In this document: positions 18,773 through 34,372 of the stretch, one piece after another
Position numbering within the stretch: the first letter of the stretch is position 1
How the letters are laid out: every line of letters begins with the position of its first letter
DNA from: Nanobdellota archaeon
Lineage (GTDB): Archaea; Nanobdellota; Nanobdellia; Pacearchaeales; GW2011-AR1
Direction: 5' to 3'
Length of the DNA: 50,173 nt
NCBI GenBank assembly: GCA_039714095.1
Contig: JBDLJZ010000002.1
Location: forward strand, 1-50,173
Position numbers and translations under genes: made by a program
The notes under the pieces: generated by a model
Database searches by the model: none
Told to the model about the DNA's origin: nothing
What the model saw: only the letters and a program-made list of their open reading frames with translations

Positions 18773-18808
18773 TTCCCACTATGATGAGAGATAGGGGGTG
18801 TCCTCGCT

Positions 18809-19168
18809 ATGGCTAAAAACAAAACAAAAACAAGAGAAATTACAATAAAAGAATCTAAAGGAGCATTTTCATTATTAAAAAAATCTGGAGTATCAAAAAA
18901 AGATTATGATTTTTCAGGAGTTCTCGCTTTAAGACAATTATTAAGTAATGAAAAAGCAAGAATTTTAAATGTTATTAAGACCCAAAATCCCACTTCAATT
19001 TATGATTTAGCTAAAAAACTTGGGAGAGGTTTTAAATCTGTAAGTGATGATATTAAACTTTTAGAGAGGTTTGGATTTATTGAACTCATTGAAGAAAAAA
19101 CAAAAAATAGAATTAGACATCGCCCAGAAATAGTAGTAGATAGTATAATTATTAATATCAAAGTTTAG
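18809..19168 (+). CDS. winged-helix transcriptional regulator (ArsR/MarR-like)
   Basis: ..LSNEKARILNVIKTQNPTSIYDLAKKLGRGFKSVSDDIKLLERFGFIEL.. has an HTH-plus-wing pattern. The ATG is preceded by the family-1 tail ggtgtcctcgct (18797..18808). Confidence 0.55.
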   Translation: MAKNKTKTREITIKESKGAFSLLKKSGVSKKDYDFSGVLALRQLLSNEKARILNVIKTQNPTSIYDLAKKLGRGFKSVSDDIKLLERFGFIELIEEKTKNRIRHRPEIVVDSIIINIKV

Positions 19169-19686
19169 TAATAAACAACAAAATTAATGCTTATCTCACT
19201 ACCACTTCTAAAAAATTCCTGTACAGCACCCTTAGAATTAGATGTTATATTCCCTTCTTGAATAAATAATAATTCTTTACCTCCAGAGAATATTTTTATT
19301 TTCCTCCCCTTTAAAGGTCTGTCTTCTCCAACTTTCCAATACTCTTCAAAAATTTTATTCAATGTTTCTTCTAATATCTCACAAGTGTCTTGTCCATCTA
19401 AGCATTTGTCTTGATTATCACAACTAAATATAAGCTTTTGAACAGATAAATAATCTAAATTATCAGATCTTCTACATTCACTTGTGTGTTGTAAAAATGC
19501 TTGAATAAAACTCTCAATTTCATAACTTTTTATAGTTTCCTTTTCATTATTTCTTAAAGAAATACTCAAAAAAACAAGTAACACAACTGAAACTATAATT
19601 ATTATCATTGCAAATCCCACTATTTCTTCCTGCCCTTTCTTAGACCTCCGACATTCGGTATCCGATATCCAATTTTTATCCATCAT
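19165..19686 (-). CDS. class III signal peptide (type IV pilin-like) protein, 173 aa
   Basis: RRSKKGQ|EEIVGFAMIIIIVSVVLLVFL. The leader contains a G+C-rich patch (ggatatcggataccgaatgtcggaggtc). Confidence 0.55.
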   Translation of the reverse strand: MMDKNWISDTECRRSKKGQEEIVGFAMIIIIVSVVLLVFLSISLRNNEKETIKSYEIESFIQAFLQHTSECRRSDNLDYLSVQKLIFSCDNQDKCLDGQDTCEILEETLNKIFEEYWKVGEDRPLKGRKIKIFSGGKELLFIQEGNITSNSKGAVQEFFRSGSEISINFVVYY

Positions 19687-19751
19687 AACCCTCCATTATG
19701 CAAGTTTTGCGAAGCAACTTGTATGCGCGAAGCGAATGTGTGGGTAAAATT

Positions 19752-20249
19752 TTATCCATCATAACCCACCATTAATTTAACAACTTCACATTTATCATAA
19801 ACTTTTCCCTCAAATAAATCCTTCCAGCATAATGAGACGAAATTTGAATATTCTGATGTAATGTTTGAAGAATAAAGTTTTATAATATCGCAATTAGGAT
19901 AATTTCCTAAATTACACGTCAAAGGTGTTGGACTTTGTTTTCTAATTTCAATATTTGAAACTCCCCAAAAATTAACATATTTTGAAGAACTTTCTTTTAA
20001 CATCATTACTTTGTCTGCATCTACACAATTTATTCTATTAGAGCCAAATGATTCTCCACATGAAAATTCAGGTGAATTAGCAAGTCTTGAAACTAAAAGC
20101 ATTGCGTTTTTTTCTTCAAGTTCTAAAGCAGATTCTCTTAAATTTGAAGTTGATATAGTCAGTACAAACATCCCTGCCAAAACAAAAAACAAAGTAATTG
20201 CCATTAGCATAAATGCCATCTGCTGTATTTTTAATTGTCCTTTTTTCAT
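19752..20249 (-). CDS. class III signal peptide (type IV pilin-like) protein
   Basis: MKKGQ|LKIQQMAFMLMAITLFFVLAGMF. Start moved from TTG 20294 to ATG 20249 because the extension lies inside repeat copy C. Confidence 0.6.
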   Translation of the reverse strand: MKKGQLKIQQMAFMLMAITLFFVLAGMFVLTISTSNLRESALELEEKNAMLLVSRLANSPEFSCGESFGSNRINCVDADKVMMLKESSSKYVNFWGVSNIEIRKQSPTPLTCNLGNYPNCDIIKLYSSNITSEYSNFVSLCWKDLFEGKVYDKCEVVKLMVGYDG

Positions 20250-20260
20250 TTTTTTATTTT

Positions 20261-20356
20261 GAAGGGTTACGCCGAAGTTATTGGAGAGCGACAAATGTTA
20301 AAAACCAATAGCGACTTTCCAATGGCTGAGCAAAAGGAAACCGTAGGTGTCCTCGC
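20261..20356 (+). repeat. G+C-rich structured repeat, family 1, copy C (H2 + tail, + orientation between two minus-strand genes)
   Basis: gaagggttacgcc, then the H2 hairpin (20274..20331), then aaaggaaaccgtaggtgtcctcgc. The last base is shared with the stop codon of the upstream gene. Confidence 0.6.
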
Positions 20357-21282
20357 TACCATAATCTACACTGACTATTTAATTCATTATCATTAATTTT
20401 TTGTGCAATATTCCATACACTTCCAATATTAGCAGAGTCAATTAATCCATTAGCAGAATTACTTAATTGAACCAAATCATTTCCTAAATTTGAATTACAA
20501 CCTCTCTGAGAAATAAATGATTCTTTGTCTTGATAAATTTTAGATAGTTGTTTTATTCTTTTCATAATTCTTTGTAATTGACAATTATAAATTTTTTTAT
20601 CTGAAAAAATTGTAGCATACATTAATGCATCTGTTCTAAAATGCAAAATTTCTCCCTCTTTTTCAACTGTTTGTGCCCCATAATTAACTTGCACATCACA
20701 ATCTTCATAATTAAAACAAACATTTATTTTATTTGATAAATCCTCACAATCTTTTGTAAAAATATTTCCTTGGCTTAGGGTTTCTAACTCTTCTTTAATA
20801 TTTTCTGGTGCATTTAAAAAACAATAATTTTTATTTGAAGATGTTAAATAAATTAAATCTGTAACTTTAAAAGGAAATTCCAAGGGTTTTGAAAAAATGT
20901 AAAATGTTTTTCCTTCTGCATATGCTTCTGAAAAAATATATTTATTCTCAAAGCTTACTTCTACATCTGTTTGCGTCCATTTATCAAAACTTTTTTGAGA
21001 AATTTGAATTCCTTGTTTTCCAAAAACACTTAAGTTATTACATCTGTTATAAATTCTTGTTTCAGCAGGAAAAATAATTGTAGTAGTTTTTCCAACTTCA
21101 AACCCAGTCTCTAAAGGATTCAATAACACTCCGATTTCATTTGCTGTTTTAGCCCCAATAATAGTCTCTTGTGTACTAATTGTTTTTGTCACAGCATAAA
21201 TTGTTAGAGATAAAATCATTGCACCAACAATAATAGCAAAAAGCCAAGCAAAAGATATTTGTAAAAATCCTTTTTTATTCAT
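20356..21282 (-). CDS. class III signal peptide (type IV pilin-like) protein, about 308 aa
   Basis: MNKKGF|LQISFAWLFAIIVGAMILSL. Start moved from TTG 21333 to the internal ATG, which removes the overlap with the upstream gene. Confidence 0.6.
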   Translation of the reverse strand: MNKKGFLQISFAWLFAIIVGAMILSLTIYAVTKTISTQETIIGAKTANEIGVLLNPLETGFEVGKTTTIIFPAETRIYNRCNNLSVFGKQGIQISQKSFDKWTQTDVEVSFENKYIFSEAYAEGKTFYIFSKPLEFPFKVTDLIYLTSSNKNYCFLNAPENIKEELETLSQGNIFTKDCEDLSNKINVCFNYEDCDVQVNYGAQTVEKEGEILHFRTDALMYATIFSDKKIYNCQLQRIMKRIKQLSKIYQDKESFISQRGCNSNLGNDLVQLSNSANGLIDSANIGSVWNIAQKINDNELNSQCRLW

Positions 21283-21292
21283 CTTCTTAGAT

Positions 21293-21886
21293 TTATTTAA
21301 TTGTAACCAATGCTTCTCCATATTGTTTTTCAATTACAAGTTTAATTTTACCTTTTATATTTTCTACACAAAACGGATTATCTCTTAAAATTGTCTTTGC
21401 TAAATCAAGATGTTTAATCTCTTTTGAATTTAATCCTTCTGAAGACCCCCCAGGATAGAAAAACAAATTTTCATGTTCTTGATGTAATTGTTTTAATTCA
21501 CTAAAATAAATTCTATATTTCCCCCTGTCTCCTGCAGGATAAAGAGAGTAATCTGCAAAGCAAACATGACTTATTTTTGAAGGCAAAAAATATTCTTTTT
21601 CTTGAGAACTTTGGGTTCCTTTCCATGCTTTATCAATATCTGTTTGAAGATTGTTTGCAAATTTTGCAATTTGTGCTGTGTCCCCTAAATTAAGAAATTT
21701 TTTAATTGCAAAAAAAGAAAACGAAATAAAAATTATAATTAATATAATTGAAAAAATCATCCCAAAAGACAATTTCATCTGCCCTTGTTTATCACATCTT
21801 TTGCCCTTTGTAAAAATCTTCGAAGAAGATTTTTCGGGGCCTCGTAGAGGTTCTCGCACCTCCTTGGTGTACGCCTGTGGTGTCAT
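21293..21886 (-). CDS. class III signal peptide (type IV pilin-like) protein whose 5' end is occupied by repeat family 2
   Basis: ..CDKQGQ|MKLSFGMIFSIILIIIFISF. The only in-frame start upstream of the KQGQ site is the repeat's own ATG (MTPQAYTKEVREPLRGPEKSSSKIFTKGK); the next in-frame ATG is the Met immediately after KQGQ. Confidence 0.55.
   Translation of the reverse strand: MTPQAYTKEVREPLRGPEKSSSKIFTKGKRCDKQGQMKLSFGMIFSIILIIIFISFSFFAIKKFLNLGDTAQIAKFANNLQTDIDKAWKGTQSSQEKEYFLPSKISHVCFADYSLYPAGDRGKYRIYFSELKQLHQEHENLFFYPGGSSEGLNSKEIKHLDLAKTILRDNPFCVENIKGKIKLVIEKQYGEALVTIK
21802..21886 (+). repeat. G+C-rich structured repeat, family 2, copy 1
   Basis: Hairpin AAAAATCTTC-gaa-GAAGATTTTT (21812..21834), then cggggcctcgtagaggttctcgcacctccttggtgtacgcctgtggtgtcat. 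Confidence 0.65.
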
Positions 21887-21930
21887 TAATAAAAATAGAA
21901 TTTTAAACTTATAAATTTAATCAAAATTAA

Positions 21931-24354
21931 TTATAAAACTTGCTCACTACTTGGTCTTGCAATAATACTACAATCACTAGGCAGAGGAGGATTTCCAAAT
22001 TCATCTTTACATTTAACATAAAATGTTTCTTGTGAATCCCATTCAATAAAATGTTCATCTTCATCAACTGTTTGCAATTCAATACCATCCTCAAATTCAT
22101 ATCTACATCCAATGTCTTCTTGGGTGTTATAAACACACATACCTGATTCATCAGTGATTAATTTAAGATAACCATCTTCTTTATACGCTCTTATAACAAC
22201 AGGTGAGCCAATATCAGTTTCAACATCAAAAGTAATATCTTCAAATACAGCATTTCCTCCAGCATCTACACACATAATAGAATAGGCATAATTCCCGTCT
22301 GCCAAATTTAATTCTTGTGTATGTTGATAAGTCATTTCAACTGGGTTGTATAAAAATTGCACATAACTTAAAGTACCTAATGGTTTGTAAGAACAAAATG
22401 CTTTGCCATCTTCTGCACCTGAGGAAGTTTCAATTTCAAAAAGAACTTGAACAGGAGAAGTTGCATCTTTAACAGTTGTTCCATTTGGTTCTGCAAAATC
22501 AATATAAAGTGGCTGTGTTCCTATCAATGTCAATTTTGTTGATTCTTTATTTGTATTTCCACTTGTATCATTACATCTAAAATAATAATTATTTTCTTCT
22601 CTATCTTTTAATCCTGTAAGTGTTGTACTACACGGATAAACTGTTTGCGCATTTCTAACTTCAAAATTTGATGAACAGTCAAAGTCATTTTCCATTAAAT
22701 TATATCCTTTGTCTATAAAATCCCACTTACAATCTGCAGGTTCATTTATGTAAGCAGTTAAACTTGTATTACTTATATTGTATGCAACAGGAGCGTTATT
22801 AGGAATACTTGTATCAACAATTAAAGGAGCAGTAAAATCTTCTCCCTCTTCAACACAAAATTTAAAAATAAATTCTCCTGTATTTGAATTGCCGTTTGCA
22901 TCCTCGCATCTTACAAATAAACTCATATTAGTTCCTTCTTTTATTACAGGTCCTATTGCTCCTATTGAAGGTAAAATCATTGTATGTGAATGATTGTATC
23001 TTGCAAGAGAATTTGAACCAAAATAAAATGACATTTCTTCATAATTATCTTTTCTTTCAGTATCTATTTTACATGTTGCAGGTTCGTCTAAGCTAACCCC
23101 AAATTTTAATGGGGTGTATGCAGAAATACATCCTTGTTCATCACCCTGATTTTCTACTGGACGAATTATAACACCTCTATCTGGGGGTGACTGCGCATTA
23201 TCAGGAGTGTACACAAAATCTTCGTTTAATGCATCTTCCCAAGGCCTTATTTGAGGTGCTTCAGCATCGTTTCTATTAATCCATGTACAAAGTTCTTCTT
23301 CACTTCCAGGATTTAATAACTCACAACCCTTGCCCAAACTTTTACACTGATATTCACTACATCCAAAAATTTCATTATTACATTCACTGCATTTTGACCC
23401 CCCACTTGGAGCTTCCCAAACAGAACATTCAAATGTTACAGATTTGTCCTCTAAGTCTTTGTAATGATTGATAATATACCACACTGCCACTGCAAAACCT
23501 ATATAAGTGCCTGCATTTCCAGAATAACCTTTATTATATATTTTCATTATGGCATTCACAGTAGTTCCTGCTTGAATTCCTTTTTCCAACCCCTCTCCTA
23601 TTGCAACTGCTTTTTTGTCTTCTTCTCCACCCCCAGCAGCTATTATAATAGTTTTTACACCTGCCGCCAGAGTATATCCTGCCAAAAGATATTGTGCAGT
23701 ATCCATAAAACCTGCTCCTCCAACCACAGTTCCTTCATTATTCTCTAATTTTCCTAATTCTGCCTTATTTTCTACTTTTGCATCTACACCATCTTTTGTA
23801 TACATCCAATTGCCTTTATCTTTATAATAATTTTTTCCTTCGTATTCATCTCCTGATAGAGTAAAAGTTTCACTTCCTGATTTTCCAAGAAATGATTCAT
23901 ACCATGAGGGCGATGATGAACTCTCGCCTGGAGTGTCTGTTCCAGCTCCACCAGTACCTGTTTCTTGTAAAGGAGCGATAGGATAATCTCCAGGTGTTTC
24001 AAATCCTGCAGATGGTTGAGAAGGGATGTCATTAAAACTTGCGGGATTTGGAGTTCCAGAAAGACCTAAGTTTGGGTTTTGCCCTGAAGAAGAGGTTTGA
24101 GATATACCGAGTCTTCTATTTAATTCTTCTTTACCTTTTGTATTAATAGTTTTCCACCCACTCCCATCAAGTTTTTTATATTCATAAGTATTTCCAGAAT
24201 ATCTATATATGTAAGGATCGCCTGGAAAGTTGATTATATCTCCTTCTGTAGCTTCAACAACCCCTACCTCACTTCCAACAGCATAAGAAATTGCCACAAT
24301 TCCTAATAGCAAAATCATTACTTGACACACCCCAAACGTTTTCTTAATTTTCAT
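21931..24354 (-). CDS. 807-aa secreted/membrane surface protein, homologous to the C-terminal half of the 1216-aa protein
   Basis: Signal peptide MKIKKTFGVCQVMILLLGIVAISYA, two mid-protein hydrophobic helices, a Cys cluster CSVWEAPSGGSKCSECNNEIFGCSEYQCKSLGKGCE, and repeated units ending [YF]x[VFI][RK]CxDxxGN. Confidence 0.7.
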   Translation of the reverse strand: MKIKKTFGVCQVMILLLGIVAISYAVGSEVGVVEATEGDIINFPGDPYIYRYSGNTYEYKKLDGSGWKTINTKGKEELNRRLGISQTSSSGQNPNLGLSGTPNPASFNDIPSQPSAGFETPGDYPIAPLQETGTGGAGTDTPGESSSSPSWYESFLGKSGSETFTLSGDEYEGKNYYKDKGNWMYTKDGVDAKVENKAELGKLENNEGTVVGGAGFMDTAQYLLAGYTLAAGVKTIIIAAGGGEEDKKAVAIGEGLEKGIQAGTTVNAIMKIYNKGYSGNAGTYIGFAVAVWYIINHYKDLEDKSVTFECSVWEAPSGGSKCSECNNEIFGCSEYQCKSLGKGCELLNPGSEEELCTWINRNDAEAPQIRPWEDALNEDFVYTPDNAQSPPDRGVIIRPVENQGDEQGCISAYTPLKFGVSLDEPATCKIDTERKDNYEEMSFYFGSNSLARYNHSHTMILPSIGAIGPVIKEGTNMSLFVRCEDANGNSNTGEFIFKFCVEEGEDFTAPLIVDTSIPNNAPVAYNISNTSLTAYINEPADCKWDFIDKGYNLMENDFDCSSNFEVRNAQTVYPCSTTLTGLKDREENNYYFRCNDTSGNTNKESTKLTLIGTQPLYIDFAEPNGTTVKDATSPVQVLFEIETSSGAEDGKAFCSYKPLGTLSYVQFLYNPVEMTYQHTQELNLADGNYAYSIMCVDAGGNAVFEDITFDVETDIGSPVVIRAYKEDGYLKLITDESGMCVYNTQEDIGCRYEFEDGIELQTVDEDEHFIEWDSQETFYVKCKDEFGNPPLPSDCSIIARPSSEQVL

Positions 24355-24683
24355 TTTATCTTTAACATGTCTTTTATTTGTTTATCTATTTCATTTAAAT
24401 GAATCTCTTCTAAATTTCCTAATTTATTTTTGATTTTTCTATAATCAATTATTCTAAGTTGAAACACCAAAGCAATAGAATCTTCATTTAATTTATTCTC
24501 TTTAGAGCTTTTTACATTATAAGTAAAATGATATTTTAATGCAGATTTATTTGTTGTTAGAGGGATAATTGAAACAATATTAGAATTCTTTTCAGAATAA
24601 ATTATAACTGGTCTGCATCCTTGCTGTTCATGACCTTGACCAAACAAATCAACTAAATAAATATCTCCTTTAGCAAATTTCAT
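24351..24683 (-). CDS. mazF: MazF/PemK-family endoribonuclease toxin
   Basis: KGDIYLVDLFGQGHEQQGCRPVIIYS..IIPLTTN. ATGA overlaps with both the antitoxin gene upstream and the 807-aa gene downstream. Confidence 0.8.
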   Translation of the reverse strand: MKFAKGDIYLVDLFGQGHEQQGCRPVIIYSEKNSNIVSIIPLTTNKSALKYHFTYNVKSSKENKLNEDSIALVFQLRIIDYRKIKNKLGNLEEIHLNEIDKQIKDMLKIK

Positions 24684-24886
24684 AAATTTTTTTCAAAGTT
24701 TTTACAAGCTTCATCACTTAAAATCTCCCAAGCATCTAATTCTTTTTTCAATTCAATCTCATTTTTCATGCTCTCTAAATAAAAAGACATAATTGCTTTC
24801 TCTACAACTTCTCTAAAATCAAAGCCTGTTTCTTTAGTCATTGCTTTAATCTTCTCTTCTACTTCATTTGAAATATCAATTTGCAT
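24680..24886 (-). CDS. antitoxin for MazF (68 aa, family not recognised)
   Basis: Small acidic protein with a 4-nt overlap with mazF. Confidence 0.5.
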   Translation of the reverse strand: MQIDISNEVEEKIKAMTKETGFDFREVVEKAIMSFYLESMKNEIELKKELDAWEILSDEACKNFEKNL

Positions 24887-24950
24887 TGTAGTCTAAATTT
24901 TTGAAGATTTTTAAAACTTCCCTCCTTTCTAATTTTTTTAAATTTTTCAT

Positions 24951-26639
24951 CTAATCAAACCCCAAATAATTTTTAATTATATTTATTGTTTTTCTATCCG
25001 TATCTCCACTTAATTTTCCTTGGCAATCTCCCAGCGAAGCACACATTGTATTTTGTGCATCTCCCCATCCAGAAATATAATCTTTGTCCCCATCAAAACA
25101 CTCGTCTCCATCTATTTGTTTATAACCTTTTCTTTGTAAGTCATCTGCCAAACTTTTTTCATAATGAGCTGTGCAACTTGTACTGGCTAAAGAACAAATC
25201 GCAGACTCTTCTTCATTTCCTTCATTTGATTCTTTATCGGACCAAAATTTAAATCCTGGTGCAATTAAAGGAACACATTTTTTTAGAACTTCTCCATCCC
25301 CCATCTTTTCTGAAATCCACTGACAATCTCTAATTGTTGTATCCTCACAATCTAATTGTTCTGTTTGAGCAACACAATCTTGCCAAGCATTAACTCTGCA
25401 CACAGCTGACTTAAAAGTTTTTTGAATATTATTTTCATCAGTATATCTTATTTCAGATTGAATACAAACTTCTGCTTTTCTATCAGCACACGGTTCAATA
25501 GTTACTTCTCCATTATAGCAAACCATTCTAAAAAATCTACTTCCTGGGAGATTATTTTCTGTATTGTCTGATGAGCTACTTTGTTCTGAAATTTCTCCAT
25601 TTATAATTTCTAAAAAAGTTGCTCCTTTTGCAACCTCAGAACTTGCACACCATGTCTCGCCATGTAAATATGTTTCGTCATTTCCATCCCCCCCAATATC
25701 AAATTCACAACCCAAATCTCTGCAAACAAAATCCCCATATATTGGAGATACAGCGTCTTCATTTCTGTTATATTCTTTACAAGTGCTTCCCTCAAAATAA
25801 CCACAATCTCCACAAATCGCTGAACCTGCATTTCCTATTCCATCTGCACAACTAGGTGCTGTTATATATGTCCAATAAATTTTACCTTCTTCTCCATTTC
25901 GAAGTACCTGTCCTGTGCTATCATCAATCATATTTGAGTCATAAACATTCGCAACATTCCCACAACTATCTAAAAAGAAAACCTCATCTCTTCCATCTAC
26001 GCAAGTTGTTTTATCAGTTTCAGCACAATTTGTAGCAAGTTCATCTGCAGTACATAAAAATCCCTCGTGAAAGATAGCTTCACTAATTGCTTGGCATTCT
26101 GAACGAGTTATCATTTTGCAAGTTGTTTCTAACTCTCTTTCAAATACACACGCTCCTTTTGTATCTGGAAATGCACTCGCAATACAAGAAATTTCATTTT
26201 GAATATTTTGTTGAAAATGAGTATCTATTGAATACAAAGAAGCAAAACTTTTACATTTGGCTTGTGTTACAAAAGCTGCTTGGTCTCCAATCGCACAACA
26301 ACCTAACTGACACTGAGGAATATTTACAGAACTACTTTCACTCCAATAACCCATTTCTGAGTCACATTTTAATTGAGGAGTATTTTCCATACATTCACCA
26401 TCTCTTTTGTTTACACATGTTCCAAGAGCACAATAAGAAGTAGAAATACAGGCAGTAGGTTCCATTAAATAATTACTATCACATTCATTTTTATTAGCAT
26501 CAACACACCACGCTCCACCAGTTCCTTCATTATTTGGCTCTGTTTTTTCACAACAATAAGAAATTTCTCCAAGCACACTGTTAGTTAAAAGAATTCCAAT
26601 TAAGAAAATTATTCCAAACATAAAAAAATTATTTTTCAT
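24951..26639 (-). CDS. 562-aa cysteine-rich secreted protein, homologous to the N-terminal half of the 1216-aa protein
   Basis: Signal peptide MKNNFFMFGIIFLIGILLTNSVLG. YCCEKTEP.., CQLGCCAIGDQAAF.., ..SLGDCQG are collinear with TCCEKTTE.., CTLGCCQDLGT.., ..SLGDCAG of 28898..32548. Confidence 0.7.
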   Translation of the reverse strand: MKNNFFMFGIIFLIGILLTNSVLGEISYCCEKTEPNNEGTGGAWCVDANKNECDSNYLMEPTACISTSYCALGTCVNKRDGECMENTPQLKCDSEMGYWSESSSVNIPQCQLGCCAIGDQAAFVTQAKCKSFASLYSIDTHFQQNIQNEISCIASAFPDTKGACVFERELETTCKMITRSECQAISEAIFHEGFLCTADELATNCAETDKTTCVDGRDEVFFLDSCGNVANVYDSNMIDDSTGQVLRNGEEGKIYWTYITAPSCADGIGNAGSAICGDCGYFEGSTCKEYNRNEDAVSPIYGDFVCRDLGCEFDIGGDGNDETYLHGETWCASSEVAKGATFLEIINGEISEQSSSSDNTENNLPGSRFFRMVCYNGEVTIEPCADRKAEVCIQSEIRYTDENNIQKTFKSAVCRVNAWQDCVAQTEQLDCEDTTIRDCQWISEKMGDGEVLKKCVPLIAPGFKFWSDKESNEGNEEESAICSLASTSCTAHYEKSLADDLQRKGYKQIDGDECFDGDKDYISGWGDAQNTMCASLGDCQGKLSGDTDRKTINIIKNYLGFD

Positions 26640-26640
26640 T

Positions 26641-26955
26641 TTATTCTATAATCACCCCCTCTTTTAATGCTTCACTAACTATGCTTATTCTATTTTTCTT
26701 TTTTTCAAATTCTTCAGGAGTATAACAAAGAAAATCAACAGCATAATCTAAATTCCAATAATTATTCATTTTTTTAACCCTTTCAAAAAAATTCATTTTT
26801 TCAAAATCTGGGGCCACAACAATTAGATCAATATCACTATCTTCTGTTGCTTCTCCAGTTGCCTGACTTCCAAATAAAATAATTTTTTGCAAACTAATTT
26901 CATTTACATGCAACATAAAATGTTTAATGAGTCTTATAATTTTTTCTTTACCCAT
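26641..26955 (-). CDS. minimal nucleotidyltransferase (MNT), antitoxin of a HEPN-MNT pair
   Basis: LFGSQATGEATEDSDIDLIVV (GSx9-11 DxD NTase motif). Confidence 0.85.
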   Translation of the reverse strand: MGKEKIIRLIKHFMLHVNEISLQKIILFGSQATGEATEDSDIDLIVVAPDFEKMNFFERVKKMNNYWNLDYAVDFLCYTPEEFEKKKNRISIVSEALKEGVIIE

Positions 26956-27293
26956 TCTAATATTTCTTCTGCATGTTTAATTAAATTATTAATATCCTCT
27001 TTTAAATTTAACTTTCCTTCCGTATCTGGATATCTACTAAACATATACGCAGGATTTAATTCATTACAAAAATTTTGAATATTTTCTGGAGCATTAATAT
27101 CTTTTGAGAGATTTAATAGATTATGCGTCTTAACTAATTTTTTTTGTTCTTTAATTAAAACAGCTTTCAAAGCTTTTTCAGCAGACTGTTGCAATAAAAA
27201 AGCACCTATTTCCAAATAGCCTCCACTAATACTATGTTTAGCACCCTCTAAATCTTTCTCTGCATATTCTATCCATTCTTTATATTCTTTCAT
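26934..27293 (-). CDS. HEPN-domain protein (toxin of the HEPN-MNT pair)
   Basis: 119-aa helical protein. A..FLLQQSAEKALKA..H.L and ..YMFSRYPD.. are HEPN (PF05168-like) patterns. Adjacent to MNT. Confidence 0.8.
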   Translation of the reverse strand: MKEYKEWIEYAEKDLEGAKHSISGGYLEIGAFLLQQSAEKALKAVLIKEQKKLVKTHNLLNLSKDINAPENIQNFCNELNPAYMFSRYPDTEGKLNLKEDINNLIKHAEEILEWVKKKL

Positions 27294-28168
27294 TCTCTAA
27301 TCGCTCCTGATGTAATCCCATAACCTGAAGGCCAAATATAACTACGCGAGGCAAACTGAAATTTCTCTCCAGTGTCTCTGTTAGTTAAAATATAAATTGT
27401 TGTTCCATCTCCTTGTTTTTTCTTTTCAACTTTTAAATCATGATAAAAATTCATATAAGTTGTTGTCTCGCTGTCTCCATATTTTGCTTCAAAATTTAAT
27501 ATACTAATTGCAATGCTAACTAATTCATAAAGATTATTATTCAAAACTATACTAAAGTCCTTGTATCTTTCTGAATCTTCTTTTGTTAATGTTAAAGTGT
27601 GATTAAAATTAGCAACAACTCTTTCAGGAAATAATCTAATTCCCATTTTTCCTAAATTAAGTTTTACATCATAACCTTTTCTTTCGTAACTTTTTTTCAT
27701 TTCTTCAAAACATTCTCTGGATGATTCAGCAATACTGTTTTCTAATTCTTCTTCAATGTGTTGTCTTAAAAACGGTTGTTGCATAACACAAGGTTCATAA
27801 TAATTTGATGTATAACATAAATATTCTAATTTCCCTCCCCCATATAAAAAATAATGTTCAGGATTCAAACTCCCACCATTTGCAGAAATAATACCAATAT
27901 TTTCTTGTATCTGTTCTTCAAGACATAATTGAATAAATTCTGTCGGACTTTTTGCACCAATTCCTAATGTTGTTTGCAACTGAGGATAAAACATATAAAT
28001 AGCAACACCAATCCCAACAATTACAATTGATAAAATAATAAACAATGTAACCTGCCCCTTGTAAACATCTTTGGAAAAGATGTTTCGGGGCCTCGTAGAG
28101 GTTCTCGCACATCCTTGGTGTACACTAAAATATGTGTGTCCTTTTTTGTTTGAATTTTTCTCACCCAT
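27290..28168 (-). CDS. class III signal peptide protein (292 aa), paralog of 32533..33309, with repeat family 2 inserted in its leader
   Basis: ..VYKGQ|VTLFIILSIVIVGIGVAIYMF. EFIQLCLEEQIQENIGIISANGGSLNPE aligns with SFLESCIEEKINEAIDLIAIQGGNIKPE of the 258-aa paralog. Confidence 0.6.
   Translation of the reverse strand: MGEKNSNKKGHTYFSVHQGCARTSTRPRNIFSKDVYKGQVTLFIILSIVIVGIGVAIYMFYPQLQTTLGIGAKSPTEFIQLCLEEQIQENIGIISANGGSLNPEHYFLYGGGKLEYLCYTSNYYEPCVMQQPFLRQHIEEELENSIAESSRECFEEMKKSYERKGYDVKLNLGKMGIRLFPERVVANFNHTLTLTKEDSERYKDFSIVLNNNLYELVSIAISILNFEAKYGDSETTTYMNFYHDLKVEKKKQGDGTTIYILTNRDTGEKFQFASRSYIWPSGYGITSGAIRE
28053..28125 (+). repeat. G+C-rich structured repeat, family 2, copy 3
   Basis: Hairpin AAACATCTTT-gga-AAAGATGTTT (28063..28085), then cggggcctcgtagaggttctcgcacatccttggtgtacac. 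Confidence 0.65.
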
Positions 28169-28247
28169 TTTATATTTTCTCTAAGGGATTTTCGTTTATA
28201 AATATTTTTAATAAAATATGAAACCAGATATCTGATAGCTAATATTT

Positions 28248-28538
28248 TCAGGTTATTTTGGAAAGATATTTTTCTAAATCTTTATAATCTTTTTTTCTAT
28301 CTAAAAGACAAACAAGAATTATTTTTTGTGTAACAATATATATCATTCGAGTTTCTTTTGATTGAATTTTAAGTCTAATTCTAAAAACTTTTGAAAATGA
28401 TTTTGAATAAATTTTTTTATATCTAAATGGATTTTCTTTTATTAGTTGTATTTTATCAGAAATAATCTTTTTTGATTTTTCATCAACTTTTTCTAATTGC
28501 CGAAGAAATGTTTTTGAAGGGATTATTTGGAAATTCAT
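28248..28538 (-). CDS. RelE-like toxin
   Basis: 96 aa. ..FSKVFRIRLKIQSKETRMIYIVTQKIILVCLLDRKKDY. 4-nt overlap with the upstream small gene. Confidence 0.55.
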   Translation of the reverse strand: MNFQIIPSKTFLRQLEKVDEKSKKIISDKIQLIKENPFRYKKIYSKSFSKVFRIRLKIQSKETRMIYIVTQKIILVCLLDRKKDYKDLEKYLSKIT

Positions 28539-28792
28539 CCCAAGAGAATTTTATTTAATTCTTCTTCTGTCCCAAAATCTTTATTTTTTATTGTTTTTAA
28601 AATTAAGTTATCAATTAAATCAATTTCTTTTTCACTAAATGTTTCATCAAATTCATTTGCTTCAAATACTTTCATTCTCATACTTTCTATAGCTAAATCC
28701 TGAATATTTCTGTAACCAAAATTTTCTGCATAATTTTGAGCTGCTTTTAATAAATTCAATGGAATTTTCAGATTAATTTGTTGAGTCTCCAT
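28535..28792 (-). CDS. antitoxin (possible ribbon-helix-helix)
   Basis: QQINLKIPLNLLKAAQNYAENFGYRNIQDLAIESM resembles an RHH strand-helix-helix. Confidence 0.45.
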   Translation of the reverse strand: METQQINLKIPLNLLKAAQNYAENFGYRNIQDLAIESMRMKVFEANEFDETFSEKEIDLIDNLILKTIKNKDFGTEEELNKILLG

Positions 28793-28872
28793 AATATTAA
28801 TAGATATCTATAGATATTTAAACTTTTTGGAAATTCAAAGATAGAGAATAATATTTTTAATAAAAAATAACA

Positions 28873-28905
28873 CTACGCGATTTTTGTCAGAGGCAATTTA
28901 AAAAG
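28873..28905 (+). repeat. fragment related to family 1 (5' half of H1 joined to aggcaatttaaaaa as at the 3' end of copy D)
   Basis: ctacgcgatttttgtcag matches copy A's ctacgcgattttcgtcag at 17 of 18 positions. Overlaps the stop of the 1216-aa gene. Confidence 0.35.
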
Positions 28906-31900
28906 CACTTGGAGAAATTGAAACACATGTTCCAACATTTTCAAGATTATCCTTACACTTAATATAATATGTTTTTTCAGAATTCCATTCAACATAATGC
29001 TCAATTGTTGCTTCAAATCCAGGCTCCATTAATGTTGTAGTATTCATCTCAAAATTGCATTTTTTCAAAATATCATTGTTATAATAACATCTTGATTTTT
29101 TATGCGTTTCAATTCCAAGTAAACTCCCTGAACGATATATAACCGCAATCTCTGGTGAGGTGTTGTCAATTTCTAAAGTGAATACAATACTCTCCTCAGC
29201 CACATTTCCTGTAGAATCTTCACACATAATTGGAATATTATAATCTCCACTTACAAAAAATAAATTTTGAGTATGCATTGTTGTATCAGTATCAAAAAAT
29301 TCTAATTGAGGGTCTAAATCTGAACTTAATAAATCTCCCGAAGGAAAATAACATTTTGCAATACCCGTACCGTCGGCTCCACCAGATGTTGTAACTCTTA
29401 AAGTCATTTCATAATCTCCTGTAGCACTGCTCACCTGATTATATTCTGTAGGTGTGGCAGAAGTAATTTTTAATGTGCTAATAGAAGGATTTATTGTGTA
29501 TTCTTTGTAAGCTATATTTACATTTCCTTGAGTATCATTACATTTGAAATAAAGTTTATTTGGATCACTCGTACTAAGTCCAGTAATATCTGCAAAGTCG
29601 CAACCATATTTTAATCTTGGAAAACAAGAATCATCATCACGAATATATCCTTCACAAAACAAAGATTTAGTCATATCTTCATAATTTGTTGTTTCATCAA
29701 AACTATAACCACATTCAACTAAAGGCTCATTAGCATAAATTTTAGGGCTGTCTAAAGTATCATTTCCAAATATTAAATAACTTCCATCTTCTGGAGAAAA
29801 TTCCTTAATAATTGGAGGACGAATATCTGGAGTTGGATTTACACACATCTGAATATTGTATGCAGTTAATTGTGCGTTTCCTTCGTGTCCTTCACATCTA
29901 ACATAAACATTAAATTCTCCATCTTCACCAAGACAATTATCACTAAAAGAAGCAACTCTAATTTCAAAATTATTTTCTTTTGTCCAAACAAATCCCGAAG
30001 TTGGCCTGCCAATCCAATCTGTTTTATATGATGTCAAATCTGATGGAGCAGTTCCCCAGATACATCTTGCAAATTTGTTTTCTTCATCCTTATCAGTTGT
30101 TAAATTAAAATTTAATAAAGTATTTCCTTCAACACACCCATTCTCATTTGAATTATTTGTGATTATTATTCCTGTTTCAAGTGCACCATTAGATTGGATC
30201 GTTGTTGTTAAATCTCCAGAAAAACTGCCCACATTAAAATTAATAACTGGTGGCGTAGGGTCAAGTTCTTTTTTAACACAAATAACTTCATCTGTTGCAA
30301 CACCTTCTTCTTCAACTAATACTTCACAATTTTTCCCTAAGCTCCAACATTTATATTCTGTGCAAGGGAATTCTCCTTCATTACATTTATCACACTCCTG
30401 ACTTCTTGCAGGAGGTTCCCACGGCTCACACGAAAAACTAACTTCTGACTTTTCTAATTTTCCAATTTTATCACCTTGTTGCCAATTAAATACAACTAGT
30501 TCTATTATGGCTGCAACTATTGTTACAATATAATTAGCATAAATTCCTATTAATCCTCCAACCTGATTTACCTGTCTAAATTTAAGTAAACCTCTACTTC
30601 CTTCATCAAGAGTTTCTTCGCATACTTGTTCTCCTTCTATTTCAACACATTCAATTTCTCCTAATTGGCTATTAATCAGGTTTAGAATAGTAGAACTTGA
30701 AGAACCTAAACTTGAAGCTAAATTTGCAAAGGTAGGAGAATTATTTTCTTCAGGAGTATTATTTATCCTAACATATCTCTCTTTTAAACTATCTTTTCCA
30801 GTATAATTTCCAACAGTATTAACATAACCTGCACAATCTCCCAAACTCACACAAAAATCATTCATCTGACTATAAAATCTCTCTGGATTTTTATCACACT
30901 CTTTATTTGCAATATAATCTAAATAAACTCTTTCTAAAATAAGACACCCCCATATAGGTTCCCAAGCAACACATTTTGCTTTGTATTGTTGAATAATTGG
31001 ACAAGACATTGATGCAAAGCTACAAACACTTTCATCATCTTCTGCTGAATAAATTGGGTTAAATCCTTGAGGATATTTTGGAACACAAACATCAAATTTA
31101 AAAAAATCAACTTCATCATCTTTTACAACATTTATATTTTGCATTCTACAATCTGACTCATCTTCACAATCTTCTACATTCTCTATTCCAAAACAATTTA
31201 ATCCCATATTTGGTCTGCATGTTGCTTCAGTGTAAGAAATAGCACTTTCTCCTTCTCCGATTTCAACAGCATGCTCTCCACAAATATTCTCTCTATAAAC
31301 TCCGCAATTAATTGTTGTTATCTCTCCTTGAATACATGATTTTCTATAATGAGAAGAGCCAGGAATATCTGAAGAAATTTGAACTCCAGTTTCATCATTA
31401 ATATATTCTCCAACCTGTCCTTCATAAACACACCAACTCTCTCCATTTTTCCTCTCTTTATTATTATCTGTTTCATCCACACAGCTTAAATCTGCACAAA
31501 CAAAATTATCCTCTGCAACATGAGTTTCTGAACTATCAACTGGTTTACATGTATTAAATACACTATCACAATTTCCGCATGTATCTAAATTATTTGGATT
31601 ATTTACATCAATTGTGCAAACTTGCGAACCTACTATTTTTACAAATCCTTGATTCCAACTTTCATCTTTTAATGCAGGAGTATTTCCTTCATAAACATTT
31701 TCCATATTTCCACAAGAATCAAACCAATAAATTTTTTCATCTAAACAATTAATACTCTCTTGTTTAGTACAAATTGTGTCTAATCCTTCATTAGAACATA
31801 AACTTCCTTCATGAAAAGTCCTACTTTCTATACATTCTGCCCCACTATTAAATTCACAATTATTTTCTCCATTTACTTGATAAACACAAGCACCATTTGC

Positions 31901-32548
31901 ATCTGATGAAATATCTCCACATAGTTCTTCAGGTATTGTATCATCAAAAATTCCACCTTGCAAATCACACCAAGCTTGCGAATTGTATTGTGTATTTGTT
32001 CCTAAATCCTGACAACAACCAAGAGTACATTCATCTGCTTCATTAAACCATTCTCCATTATTTTCTTCACAAGTAATTCTAGGAGATAGGGCAGAGCATA
32101 AACCATCTGTACCAATACAATCTCCCAATTTACAAAATGTTGTTGAACCACAATCTGATTGCACATTTGTAGTATCACAATCCTCTTGCAATACATCTTC
32201 TTGACAAAATGCTCCTTCTGTTGTTTTCTCACAGCAAGTTGTCGCCGAAACAAAACCAATTTGATTTATTGATAAAAATCCAACTACTAAGTTTAAACTT
32301 GACTTAATTATTTTTTTAGAAATTTCACTTATCTCTGAATTAATTTTTATTTCTTCACTATTAAGATTATAACTTTGAGCAATAGTAAAATTAATTAGTA
32401 AAATTATTTGAAATATACTAAAAATTAAAATTATTTTTCTGCCCTCAGTAAAAATTTTTGCAGAAGATTTTTCGGGGCCTCGAAGAGGTTCTTGTGCTGG
32501 GAGCTTTAGCGAGGCAGTATACGCCTGTGGTGTCATCCTATAATACAC
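28898..32548 (-). CDS. 1216-aa giant cysteine-rich surface protein (a fused equivalent of the 562-aa + 807-aa pair)
   Basis: The N-terminal half is collinear with 24951..26639 and the C-terminal half with 21931..24354 (FSCEPWEPPARSQECDKCNEGEFPCTEYKCWSLGKNCE). The track start is GTG 32548. ATG 32536 (MTPQAY) overlaps the upstream stop as ATGA and may be the real start. Confidence 0.75.
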   Translation of the reverse strand: MYYRMTPQAYTASLKLPAQEPLRGPEKSSAKIFTEGRKIILIFSIFQIILLINFTIAQSYNLNSEEIKINSEISEISKKIIKSSLNLVVGFLSINQIGFVSATTCCEKTTEGAFCQEDVLQEDCDTTNVQSDCGSTTFCKLGDCIGTDGLCSALSPRITCEENNGEWFNEADECTLGCCQDLGTNTQYNSQAWCDLQGGIFDDTIPEELCGDISSDANGACVYQVNGENNCEFNSGAECIESRTFHEGSLCSNEGLDTICTKQESINCLDEKIYWFDSCGNMENVYEGNTPALKDESWNQGFVKIVGSQVCTIDVNNPNNLDTCGNCDSVFNTCKPVDSSETHVAEDNFVCADLSCVDETDNNKERKNGESWCVYEGQVGEYINDETGVQISSDIPGSSHYRKSCIQGEITTINCGVYRENICGEHAVEIGEGESAISYTEATCRPNMGLNCFGIENVEDCEDESDCRMQNINVVKDDEVDFFKFDVCVPKYPQGFNPIYSAEDDESVCSFASMSCPIIQQYKAKCVAWEPIWGCLILERVYLDYIANKECDKNPERFYSQMNDFCVSLGDCAGYVNTVGNYTGKDSLKERYVRINNTPEENNSPTFANLASSLGSSSSTILNLINSQLGEIECVEIEGEQVCEETLDEGSRGLLKFRQVNQVGGLIGIYANYIVTIVAAIIELVVFNWQQGDKIGKLEKSEVSFSCEPWEPPARSQECDKCNEGEFPCTEYKCWSLGKNCEVLVEEEGVATDEVICVKKELDPTPPVINFNVGSFSGDLTTTIQSNGALETGIIITNNSNENGCVEGNTLLNFNLTTDKDEENKFARCIWGTAPSDLTSYKTDWIGRPTSGFVWTKENNFEIRVASFSDNCLGEDGEFNVYVRCEGHEGNAQLTAYNIQMCVNPTPDIRPPIIKEFSPEDGSYLIFGNDTLDSPKIYANEPLVECGYSFDETTNYEDMTKSLFCEGYIRDDDSCFPRLKYGCDFADITGLSTSDPNKLYFKCNDTQGNVNIAYKEYTINPSISTLKITSATPTEYNQVSSATGDYEMTLRVTTSGGADGTGIAKCYFPSGDLLSSDLDPQLEFFDTDTTMHTQNLFFVSGDYNIPIMCEDSTGNVAEESIVFTLEIDNTSPEIAVIYRSGSLLGIETHKKSRCYYNNDILKKCNFEMNTTTLMEPGFEATIEHYVEWNSEKTYYIKCKDNLENVGTCVSISPSAF
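32440..32536 (+). repeat. G+C-rich structured repeat, family 2, copy 2 (diverged middle)
   Basis: tgccctcagtAAAAATTTTtgcagAAGATTTTTcggggcctcgaagaggttc...acgcctgtggtgtcat. Confidence 0.6.
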
Positions 32549-33309
32549 CCCCTAACTGCAAACCTAAATAACTTATCTATTTCTCTATTTTTTACACTAT
32601 AAATTTTTTCACCTTCGCTATCAATAAATAAACTAATTTTTATGTCAGGATAAATTAACATATAAGAATTTATATTAAATTCACAATATTGTGCTTCAGA
32701 ATTCAAAATACTATGAACAATAAGAACCAACTCATATAAATTAGTATGAATAATGGTTCCGATGTTTTGCATTTTAGAGCTTTCATCGTTTTTTATTAAA
32801 TCCAATTCCCCATCTAATATTAATTTTACTCCTTCAAAATTTAATTTAACTTCAAATCCATTATAAATTTTTTTTACATCATAATTTTGTTTTTCTAAAT
32901 TTTCTGCTAATTTATTAAAGCAAATTTTTACATCATCTCTAATATAATTTTCAATTTCTGTTTCAATGTGGCTCGTTAACATAGGAACTTGATTAATACA
33001 TCTATCATAAGAATTTTGATTATAACATAAATAAGAAATATTTACTGGCTCAGCTTCGTCTTTAAATTTAAATCTTTTTTTTAATTCAGGTTTAATGTTC
33101 CCTCCTTGTATCGCAATTAAATCAATTGCCTCATTAATTTTTTCTTCAATACATGACTCTAAAAAAGAATTTGGATTAATTTCTTTTCCCCCACCAATAT
33201 TTGGAATTAATCCTTGTCTAAAAAGAAAATAAAATGCAATTGCCACAACAATTAAAATCCCCGCAACAATAAAAATCGTTAATTGCCCCTTATTATTTGC
33301 ACCCTTCAT
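32533..33309 (-). CDS. class III signal peptide protein (258 aa), first gene of the array
   Basis: MKGANNKGQ|LTIFIVAGILIVVAIAFYFLF. Confidence 0.6.
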   Translation of the reverse strand: MKGANNKGQLTIFIVAGILIVVAIAFYFLFRQGLIPNIGGGKEINPNSFLESCIEEKINEAIDLIAIQGGNIKPELKKRFKFKDEAEPVNISYLCYNQNSYDRCINQVPMLTSHIETEIENYIRDDVKICFNKLAENLEKQNYDVKKIYNGFEVKLNFEGVKLILDGELDLIKNDESSKMQNIGTIIHTNLYELVLIVHSILNSEAQYCEFNINSYMLIYPDIKISLFIDSEGEKIYSVKNREIDKLFRFAVRGCIIG

Positions 33310-33339
33310 AAATATTAATTAAAAATAAATTATATAAAC

Positions 33340-34065
33340 TTAATCATCTGTCTCAACTCTCGGCGCAAGAATAAAACTTAATTCCATCCCGTTATCTCTT
33401 AAATCCATTCTCAATGGATGATTAGCAGCAAAATTCAAAATAGTTTTTTCACTTAATTTACAACCCTTAATAAATTTAGAAAGATATTCCAAACTATATC
33501 TAGATTTACAATCTTCTGCATTAATTTGTGCTTCATCTCCAGAAAATTCTGCACGAGCAGAATTCAATCCTTTAGCTTCAATTATAAATTTCCCTTCCCC
33601 AACAATAAATGAACAAGCCTCTGCAACAATTGAACAATCTTCAACAGAATCAATTAAATCAGAAGAATTAATTTCAACTCTTGAACTAAATTCCAAACTC
33701 GGCATTTCCTTGTCTTCGCTTTCAATATTAATCAAACCCAAACTAAAATTTCTCAAAATTCTATCTTCAATTCTAATATTTAACATATTTTCTTGTTTTT
33801 CTAAAATTAAAGAACTCTTTGTTCCACATCTTTTTAAAATTCTTTTAAAATCATCTAAATTAACTCCTAAAACTTCATCTGTTACTTCAAACATAGAAAA
33901 AAAACTCTTTGGGAGTTTAAATCCAACCATTGCAACATTTGCAGGGTCAATAGCAACAATACTCATACCAAATTCATTTACTTTTAATCTGACTTCAGAG
34001 ACTAATTCAGAAATAATCTCTACAGCTTTTGATAACATTAAAGGATTATCTAATTTAACTTTCAT
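33340..34065 (-). CDS. pcn: DNA polymerase sliding clamp PCNA
   Basis: 241 aa. ..AVEIISELVSEVRLKVNEFGMSIVAIDPANVAMVGFKLPKSFF.. and the C-terminal ..HPLRMDL...MELSFILAPRVE are typical of archaeal PCNA. Confidence 0.9.
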   Translation of the reverse strand: MKVKLDNPLMLSKAVEIISELVSEVRLKVNEFGMSIVAIDPANVAMVGFKLPKSFFSMFEVTDEVLGVNLDDFKRILKRCGTKSSLILEKQENMLNIRIEDRILRNFSLGLINIESEDKEMPSLEFSSRVEINSSDLIDSVEDCSIVAEACSFIVGEGKFIIEAKGLNSARAEFSGDEAQINAEDCKSRYSLEYLSKFIKGCKLSEKTILNFAANHPLRMDLRDNGMELSFILAPRVETDD

Positions 34066-34119
34066 TTTTTAGAAAAACCTTTTTGTCTTATAAGCATTTC
34101 TGTTATTTAGTATAAATAA

Positions 34120-34316
34120 CTATGCGATCTTCGTTGGATTGCACAAGAAAAATCTCCCATCGCAAAGGGCAGAGAAAACGAGCGATTTCATTTGCACTAT
34201 CTACGAAGTGTCGTAAGCAAATGGGGTCAGGAGCCAAAAAAAACTAGCTTAGGTGAGCAATTACACTTGCATCAAATTCCAAAGGCAATTTAAAAAAATC
34301 GCAAGCGTGATTGGGA
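34120..34316 (+). ncRNA. G+C-rich structured intergenic element (diverged family-1 copy D), candidate small RNA of unknown class
   Basis: Begins ctatgcgatcttcgttggattgcac (H1 5' half) and ends ggcaatttaaaaaaatcgc (H1 3' half). Internal hairpin CATTTGC-actatc-TACGA-agtg-TCGTA-a-GCAAATG at 34189..34223. Confidence 0.35.
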
Positions 34317-34372
34317 ATTTGTTTTTATATTTCTACAATAAACAATATAAACTTTTATACATTTAATGAACA

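Follow-up and report, generated by a model that had tools for sequence, protein, structure and literature searches.

Introduction

Loci of archaeal type IV filaments often include minor pilins, immunoglobulin (Ig)-rich adhesin-like proteins and S-layer-like proteins (PMC4858521; bioRxiv 10.64898/2026.04.22.720090). We analyze here a surface-protein gene cluster that resembles the accessory genes of such filament and pilus (TFF/T4P) loci (Makarova et al., 2016, PMC4858521), and which lies within a 50,173-nt stretch of DNA (the window; assembly GCA_039714095.1, contig JBDLJZ010000002.1, positions 1 to 50,173) of a Nanobdellota archaeon. The cluster encodes a large protein as one chain (the fused protein, 1216 aa) and a paralog of it as two chains, an N-half (562 aa) and a C-half (807 aa), with a MazEF toxin-antitoxin (TA) pair between the two halves. 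We consider it likely that this region is the core of a conserved cell-surface cluster with two ancient paralogous modules which differ by one old rearrangement, and that the MazEF pair is a late selfish insertion.

Tandem small proteins with class III leaders, large Ig-rich and Cys-rich proteins that are secreted or anchored, and an S-layer-like gene alongside are shared with the TFF/T4P accessory genes; by analogy, the minor-pilin/PilY1 tip complexes of bacteria may be viewed as a close system. By contrast, the ATPase, platform protein and peptidase of such loci are not in the studied one, and no studied protein matches a described pilin, PilY/DUF2341 or arCOG-derived Pfam model. The locus further differs by a head domain (the N-half and its counterpart in the fused protein) without detectable known fold, by the internal membrane hairpin of the large protein, and by the presence of one-chain and two-chain versions side by side. 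No description of the cluster was found in the literature.

The protein pair and the TA pairs can also be compared with described arrangements. In Rosetta-stone fusion/fission pairs, as here, a composite protein is collinear with two adjacent components at highly significant similarity, and the likeness extends to architectures that fall nearly wholly on either side of one tree split. The present composite differs from them in that its N-terminal signal belongs to the downstream component, with the domain of the upstream component nested, and in that composite and components coexist as old paralogs within one operon-like cluster. With chromosomal type II TA modules, considered as mobile selfish cassettes (MazEF, HEPN-MNT/MntA-HepT, RelE/ParE), the pairs found here share a small two-gene form, a patchy distribution among close relatives, the alternation of families at the same sites and integration through overlapping stop and start codons. 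They differ in being concentrated in a single conserved cluster of surface-protein genes, within a genome that is very small, and in recurring at the same gene junctions across divergent lineages.

Paralogy and Domain Layout of the One-Chain and Two-Chain Proteins

The 1216-aa open reading frame (ORF; 28898..32548; coordinates are those of the window, and genes lie on the minus strand unless stated otherwise) is collinear with both components of the two-chain version. Its residues 87-586 align with residues 12-562 of the N-half (24951..26639) at 27% identity (E 8e-42), and its residues 652-1204 with residues 254-788 of the C-half (21931..24354) at 29% identity (E 5e-45). The CCEKT, LGCC and SLGDC motifs and the Cys-knot motif, from which a sequence-only reading of this DNA had proposed the two similarities, fall inside the respective alignments. 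Each version is preceded, as that reading had also noticed, by a paralogous prepilin-like gene, of 258 aa before the fused gene (32533..33309) and of 292 aa before the two-chain genes (27290..28168), the two products being 36% identical (E 9e-47). The proposal that the 1216-aa protein equals the 562-aa plus the 807-aa protein stood as regards collinear paralogy, pairwise alignment being significant for both halves, but not as a sum: the components are not joined end to end, the N-terminal signal of the fused protein is of the C-half type, and the N-domain is nested. Some 190 residues of the C-half (28 to about 215) are not represented in the fused protein. Likewise, the paralogs do differ by a change of architecture of the fusion/fission type, but no link of this change to the MazEF pair was found.

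An assembly artefact, in the form of a chimeric contig or of a collapsed or duplicated repeat, has a vanishingly small probability as the source of this paralogy. Short-read unitigs do end at three copies of a repeat element (described below), and in an independent public run the contigs break only at short repeats. However, the contigs of that run tile positions 18000..34500 at an even depth of 73-77x that is never doubled, an identity of 27-36% between the paralogs makes mis-joined copies impossible, and the gene order is identical in the independent assemblies of loci L001 and L002 and of many more. In view of this even depth and of the same order in an independent assembly, misassembly, against which the sequence-only reading had cautioned, is excluded for practical purposes.

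Alignments, hydropathy and AlphaFold2 (AF2) modeling define the layout of the large proteins. The fused protein, whose likely start is the ATG at 32536 (1212 aa) rather than the GTG at 32548, comprises an inserted element (aa 6-36), a signal/anchor (aa 37-59), a Cys-rich N-domain (about aa 100-586, 30791..32251) followed by a linker, a helical membrane hairpin (aa 649-688, 30485..30604), and a Cys knot with about five Ig-like domains (aa 697-1216, 28901..30460). The N-half is a secreted, Cys-rich protein with an ordinary signal peptide (aa 1-24) and without a membrane anchor. The C-half, delimited by alignment and hydropathy, has a hydrophobic N-terminus of its own, as had been noticed from the sequence; this signal/anchor (aa 1-27), of a type also present on fused proteins, is followed by a variable slot of low complexity (aa 28 to about 215), a pair of hydrophobic helices (about aa 216-300) and the Cys knot with Ig-like domains (aa 301-807). 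Cysteines number 68 in the fused protein, 41 in the N-half and 22 in the C-half, with dozens of invariant Cys columns; in the N-half family, more than 40 Cys are invariant across 119 sequences.

The AF2 model of the fused protein, built from residue 37 onward with 58 sequences, reached a predicted local distance difference test (pLDDT) score of 78, mostly 85-95 over model residues 720-1175. It predicts an N-terminal helix, a beta-rich, Cys-rich region (model residues 68-545) and a disordered linker, followed by a helical hairpin (613-652) and, after a small Cys-rich unit, by about five domains of beta-sandwich type. A Foldseek search with this model against the PDB returned solely Ig/FN3 arrays and adhesins (E 1e-12 to 1e-8), in line with the tandem beta-sandwiches of Ig-like surface adhesins. 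The N-half model (119 sequences; pLDDT 85, predicted template modeling score 0.64) found no match in the PDB (best E 0.75) or BFVD (best E 0.013, probability 0.07). Sequence searches of Pfam, NCBIfam and the PDB with all large and small cluster proteins yielded only TA domains and, in the 807-aa protein, a Big_13 match (E 0.0035) that misses its Pfam cut-off; PF19077 and PF15418 are precomputed for several C-half homologs. The C-terminal part is thus modeled as a membrane hairpin, a Cys knot and Ig-like domains, and the N-domain appears, in its predicted structure, to be without detectable known fold.

Age and Conservation of Both Architectures

Both architectures are widespread as such. The 1216-aa query retrieved 153 proteins, the best 120 of the 153 being nearly all 1100-1400 aa long, the 562-aa query 1119 proteins, the best 120 of the 1119 measuring 406-663 aa and nearly all 470-660 aa, and the 807-aa query 92 proteins, mainly of 650-950 aa. 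When 332 homologs were sorted with hidden Markov models (HMM), 120 had both domains, while the N-domain stood alone in 121 and the C-domain in 91, and the N-half profile found 1689 representatives (940 at E<=1e-30) in a library of 1.84 billion proteins. In neighbor-joining trees made for each domain, one split separates the architectures for 233/234 and 208/208 tips, and for 351/368 and 239/241 tips once 145 further proteins were added. Orthologs of the split and of the fused copies in other genomes are 55-71% identical, vs. 27-29% between split and fused copies.

The gene order is conserved as well. In L001, which is among the closest relatives (proteins 55-65% identical to those of the window), primase and PCNA genes are followed by genes for 256 aa, 1191 aa (fused), 270 aa, HEPN, MNT, 567 aa (N-half) and 826 aa (C-half), and the series closes with four small genes, a regulator of the HVO_A0114 type and an S-layer-like gene. 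This order recurs in the Tara contig L002, where N-half and C-half are 7 nt apart and no TA is present. The modules are orthologous across L001, L002 and L013; the 252-aa protein of L002, for example, is 59% identical to the 292-aa and 36% to the 258-aa protein of the window. A scan of metagenome contigs added 80 loci, and in 22 of the 25 loci with at least 8.6 kb of upstream flank the fused gene lies upstream of the N-half, in the recurrent order prepilin-like, fused, prepilin-like, N-half, C-half. Since both forms coexist across divergent genomes and a single tree split separates them, sequence comparison indicates that the two architectures are old, conserved families in Pacearchaeota-like archaea, and that the split/fused event long predates the window genome.

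Two fused copies were seen upstream of the split pair in four loci (L012, L044, L047, L057), and an N-half without a C-half within about 10 kb downstream in three (L028, L047, L082). Because of these doubled and solitary genes, module number and completeness are seen to vary among lineages.

Selfish DNA inserted in the two-chain copy and the long low-complexity stretch of its C-half would suit a decaying duplicate, in which a mutation broke a fused gene and left non-functional halves. We regard this as extremely improbable, as dozens of divergent loci preserve the two halves as intact, separate genes, as each half has a signal sequence of its own, and as the N-half family has kept its more than 40 invariant Cys. 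Stand-alone N-halves even dominate: 109 of the 145 newly retrieved proteins (from the best 150 of 1689) had the N-domain only.

Toxin-Antitoxin Pairs at the Gene Junctions

The 596-nt insert between the two halves (24355..24950) consists of a 64-nt spacer, a 68-aa putative antitoxin ORF (24680..24886) and the mazF gene (24351..24683). The latter encodes a full-length PemK/MazF domain (PF02452, PemK_toxin, E 3.6e-20, profile positions 2-109 of 109), and the 68-aa ORF lies directly upstream with a 4-nt overlap. A MazF-fold toxin and a small overlapping gene upstream are thus both present, as in MazEF modules; the 68-aa product had no Pfam match, and neither had its counterpart in the distant locus L057. 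As the sequence-only reading had stated, this pair lies between the halves and the mazF stop overlaps the 807-aa start as ATGA.

From this position, that reading had proposed that insertion of the TA pair accompanied fission of the fused gene in this lineage, or that loss of the TA pair fused the two genes. The exact placement between the halves, with the stop overlapping the C-half start, and the occurrence of TA modules at the same junction in at least 10 other loci would agree with it. The proposal was nevertheless not upheld and is very improbable. The TA-free split pair is the commonest state, in 34/55 loci including L001 and L095, and both forms are old, split and fused copies being far more divergent (27-29% identity) than the orthologs of each (55-71%). 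The end-to-end layout predicted by it is not seen in the fused protein, and the N-half stop of the window still stands directly before an ATG, as in L001.

Among 55 loci with both halves, the gap between N-half and C-half measures at most 60 nt in 34 (0 or overlapping in 19 of these), 61-300 nt in 2, 301-1000 nt in 9 and more than 1000 nt in 10. The C-half ATG of L001 comes right after the N-half stop (gap 0), with neither a MazEF nor a ParE-like pair in this locus; in L095, whose N-half is 68% identical to that of the window, the halves overlap without TA, and in L094 (71% identical) a HEPN-MNT pair occupies the junction. With L001, these two loci make up the three closest relatives, of which two thus lack a TA there and one has a different TA. 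The MazEF insert has no counterpart in L001, L002 and L095. A homologous MazEF pair at the same junction was found, among the loci compared, in L057 only (49% identity for the toxin, 32% for the antitoxin, E 5e-4). Because the TA-free junction is commonest, close relatives lack the TA and the stop-ATG arrangement has been retained, these comparisons identify the MazEF pair as a late insertion into an existing gene boundary, neither cause nor relic of the split. A TA pair placed exactly at a "breakpoint" can thus be a late arrival in a permissive junction, which calls for caution when causality is drawn from gene order. The sequence ATGAAAA found at both edges of the insert may be a target duplication or microhomology, but given its shortness and AT-richness it carries no weight as evidence.

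The longer gaps contain TA modules of three families, together with lipoprotein-like genes and unrelated genes. Pfam confirmed MazEF and MntA/HepT in L057, MNT/HepT in L018 and L036, and a ParE-like pair in L040, the TA genes in the gaps of L014, L019, L045, L053 and L083 being assigned by similarity; in L013, 5.4 kb of unrelated genes separate the halves. A 65-aa ORF after the HEPN-MNT pair of L094 was considered as a relative of the window antitoxin and proved unrelated. Just upstream of the C-half, many lineages have one to three genes whose small products have a lipobox-like N-terminus, ..LGGC or ..SGC (seen in L017, L019, L020, L043, L048, L053, L054, L059, L060, L065 and L083), and no similarity of these small proteins to the variable N-terminal region of the C-halves was detected. 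Inserts longer than 300 nt were found at 21% of the junctions between fused and 292-like genes, 28% between 292-like gene and N-half, 36% between N-half and C-half and 19% between C-half and the next gene, vs. 7-14% elsewhere.

The window has three TA-like pairs besides MazEF. A HEPN gene (26934..27293; E 1.6e-28) and an MNT nucleotidyltransferase gene (26641..26955; NTP_transf_2, E 1.3e-13) form a pair (26641..27293) with overlapping starts and stops on both sides, common to L001 and L094. Between the fused and 292-aa genes (28248..28792), a ParE/RelE-like toxin gene (28248..28538) with weak ParE_toxin and Gp49 matches (E about 1e-3, below the Pfam cut-off) follows a small upstream ORF (28535..28792); homologous pairs are present in L019, L040 and L053, the L040 toxin matching ParE_toxin at 5e-6, and absent in L001. 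The fourth pair (18163..18692), a YafQ/ParE-like toxin gene (YafQ_toxin 6e-6, ParE_toxin 9e-5) with a small ORF, is not at that position in L001.

All four TA-like pairs found in the 50-kb window sit within the 15-kb surface-protein cluster, several are joined to their neighbors by overlapping stop and start codons, each stretch between the three direct copies of the repeat element contains at least one TA pair, and three TA families recur at cluster junctions. TA modules might thus be retained because they stabilize or regulate the cluster, as addiction modules that counter deletion of the segments flanked by direct repeats or as stress switches acting on surface-protein expression through coupled translation. 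This seems improbable, since TA content differs even between the closest relatives, most loci are without TA at the N-half/C-half junction, and L001 has TA yet lacks the repeats.

Nested Layout and Direction of Change

Stand-alone C-halves share a distinctive N-terminal hydrophobic signal (e.g., LGQIMILVLGVVAISYAVGSE and SSQIFLIVMSLFAFAVIL), and the N-terminal signal of fused proteins is of this same type (e.g., LQIFLLVLATFAFTYFI and ISYLEILIMITATFAFAYLV; FSIFQIILLINFTIAQSY in the window protein), unlike the ordinary signal peptide of N-halves. A position-specific scoring matrix (PSSM) of the C-half signal scored fused N-termini at 14.7 +/- 9.9 bits, those of N-halves at -0.8 +/- 7.5 and shuffled sequences at -9.9. 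Conversely, an HMM of fused N-termini recovered 40/58 C-halves at E<1e-3, vs. 3/1176 unrelated ORFs. The stretch of the C-halves from signal to hydrophobic hairpin varies in both length and sequence, and it is there that the N-domain stands in fused proteins. No end-to-end junction and no relic of a C-half signal was found at the junction of the fused protein. Because its N-terminal signal is of the C-half type, the composite is nested rather than joined end to end: sequence comparison presents it as a C-half-type scaffold with the head domain in the slot, which neither read-through fusion nor simple breakage explains. It offers a clean example of a composite protein that is a nested insertion and not a simple fusion.

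The direction of this change is less clear-cut. Midpoint rooting places the root within the fused group, which would make the split form derived; together with the greater diversity of fused proteins, this favors a fused ancestor. The branch separating the forms is very short, however, and the fused type of the window may simply evolve fast. Insertion of the head would fit the variable slot and the abundance of stand-alone heads. The weakly hydrophobic segment that precedes the N-domain in the fused protein of the window was considered as a relic of an N-half signal. With the anchored PSSM it scored -13.7, vs. -19.3 for shuffles; generic hydrophobic windows scored higher and less divergent fused proteins lack the segment, so it was dropped as evidence of direction.

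Prepilin-Like Proteins and a Possible Surface Apparatus

All six families of small cluster proteins begin with a short, basic leader whose last residues are [KR][G/A/S]; after it come Q and about 22 hydrophobic residues, an arrangement kept in 29-78 loci (e.g., KRG/QVTIFIIIA and KKG/QEEMVGF, the stroke marking the end of the leader). By this motif, they carry the signature of archaeal class III (prepilin-type) signal peptides. The leader reads MKGANNKG/QLTIFIV in the 258-aa protein, whose stop overlaps the next start (ATGA), and YKG/QVTLFII in its 292-aa paralog. In the 258-aa family, the [KR][GAS]Q motif and the hydrophobic stretch are kept in orthologs of 76 loci, and the protein itself has no match in Pfam, NCBIfam or the PDB. 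Downstream of the C-half, four further prepilin-like genes (197, 325, 180 and 173 aa; 19165..21886) occur in conserved order, with orthologs in L001, L002 and L013 at 45-65% identity; the [KR][KR][GAS]Q and hydrophobic motif of their families is kept in 29-36 loci each. At the cluster end stand an HTH regulator gene of the HVO_A0114 family (18809..19168, plus strand) and a gene for an S-layer-like protein of 816 aa (15284..17734), both being the same neighbors in L001, L002 and L013.

From a mechanistic point of view, the gene products probably form a cell-surface apparatus, with prepilin-like subunits that would associate with anchored Ig-like stalks bearing a disulfide-rich head. Module A would pair the 258-aa prepilin-like protein with a one-chain, disulfide-rich membrane protein made of a signal/anchor helix, a Cys-rich head of about 480 aa, a linker, a membrane hairpin, a Cys knot and about five Ig-like domains. 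In module B, the 292-aa prepilin-like paralog would be combined with the 562-aa protein as a secreted head and the 807-aa protein as an anchored Ig-like stalk, and the four other prepilin-like genes, the regulator and the S-layer-like gene would complete the set. The difference between one chain and two probably comes down to essentially one old rearrangement, by which the head was placed in, or removed from, the variable slot between the N-terminal helix and the hairpin of the scaffold. The head would be linked covalently in module A and non-covalently in module B. MazEF would be a recent, lineage-specific selfish insertion into the stop-start junction of already separate genes, the N-half/C-half junction and its neighbors being permissive landing sites for TA modules. 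The sequence features suggest an extracellular location of both halves of the fused protein and an association of head and stalk where these are separate chains; the cluster may plausibly serve in adhesion or host contact.

Several observations weigh against this account. Since the distant L057 has a homologous MazEF pair at this very junction, the pair might have been present earlier and then lost many times. The internal branch that separates the two forms is very short, and a few tips are misplaced, some of which may be fragments. No pilin or adhesin family model matches any cluster protein, the small proteins having no Pfam or NCBIfam match even at permissive thresholds or over 36 family members. 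No assembly ATPase, platform protein or prepilin peptidase was found in the window or in the flanks of L001, L002, L012 and L013; the prepilin machinery may be encoded elsewhere in the genome. Finally, just one segment of clearly membrane-grade hydrophobicity separates the halves of the fused protein, so that the topology with both halves outside rests on the conserved cysteines and not on prediction.

DPANN archaea live attached to hosts, and to our knowledge the molecules of this contact are almost unknown. Since the cluster is widespread (1689 head representatives), consists of uncharacterized families only and lies beside an S-layer gene, it provides a concrete candidate for an attachment apparatus. 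We further consider it possible, albeit rather unlikely, that the cluster specifies an undescribed host-contact organelle of Pacearchaeota-like episymbionts, in which the head is an exchangeable cassette and the TA pairs and the repeat element make addiction-protected, recombination-prone modules. If so, the prepilin-like subunits would carry or anchor a novel-fold disulfide-rich head on an Ig-like stalk, in covalent and non-covalent versions, and the TA pairs and the three direct element copies bracketing the modules would let lineages swap or lose adhesin versions.

An In-Frame Structured Element

Sequence comparison revealed three copies of a GC-rich, structured element of 81-93 nt, consisting of a core, GAACCTCTNCGAGGCCCCGAAA, followed by a 3' hairpin with compensatory changes. 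Copy 1 (21802..21883, 27 codons) immediately follows the ATG of the first of the four small genes, copy 2 (about 28053..28130) lies at the 5' end of the 292-aa gene in a different frame, and copy 3 (32441..32533, 93 nt, 31 codons) directly follows the ATG of the fused gene, of which codons 6-36 derive from it. None of the three copies is present in L001, whose orthologs are shorter by 27 and 31 codons at precisely these places and whose fused protein begins with MRRRIIF. To judge from the sequence, the copies of the window would be read in different frames. A 70-nt unitig corresponding to the 5' part of copy 3 (32463..32532) had a depth of 218x in run X1, vs. 73x locally; because of this roughly 3x depth, identical copies probably exist elsewhere in the window genome or in the community.

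The exact 22-nt core was also found in nine other DPANN contigs (L003-L011), with the element inside ORFs and in-frame, in any of the three frames. The host genes there code for the large subunit of DNA polymerase D (PolD; two different sites), cysteinyl-tRNA synthetase (CysRS; same site in two metagenome-assembled genomes), leucyl-tRNA synthetase (LeuRS), a methyltransferase-like protein and, in L007, a homolog of the fused protein, after its start codon. In L009, the PolD large-subunit gene (2938..7983) contains an intein in addition to the in-frame element. The element had no match in Rfam or tRNA scans, and no description of it was found in the literature.

The Rickettsia palindromic elements (RPE), which Ogata and colleagues are said to have described in 2000, reportedly are short structured repeats lying in-frame within genes, including essential ones, with different frames per site, and by analogy the present element resembles them in behavior. 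It differs from RPE by its archaeal (DPANN) host, its unrelated sequence and its shorter length (81-93 nt), and by four copies placed directly after the start codons of secreted-protein genes. Its in-frame presence in DNA polymerase D, CysRS and LeuRS genes of DPANN may merit a study of its own.

Genomic Setting

The G+C content of the window is about 28%. Replication genes adjoin the studied region, namely the PCNA gene and, on the plus strand, the gene for the primase large subunit (34373..37042), which has an intein with a LAGLIDADG domain. Named homologs of the studied proteins belong to Candidatus Pacearchaeota, Nanoarchaeota and unclassified "archaeon" metagenome-assembled genomes, which marks the source as a Pacearchaeota-like DPANN archaeon, and the entire region was present in one public run, labeled as a marine metagenome. 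Outside the cluster, a protein with a Fic/DOC domain and a C-terminal HTH is encoded at 9950..11230, and at 5200..6448 a gene for a histidine-kinase-like ATPase forms a pair with one for a STAS-like DUF4325 protein; these may be further toxin- or defense-like modules.

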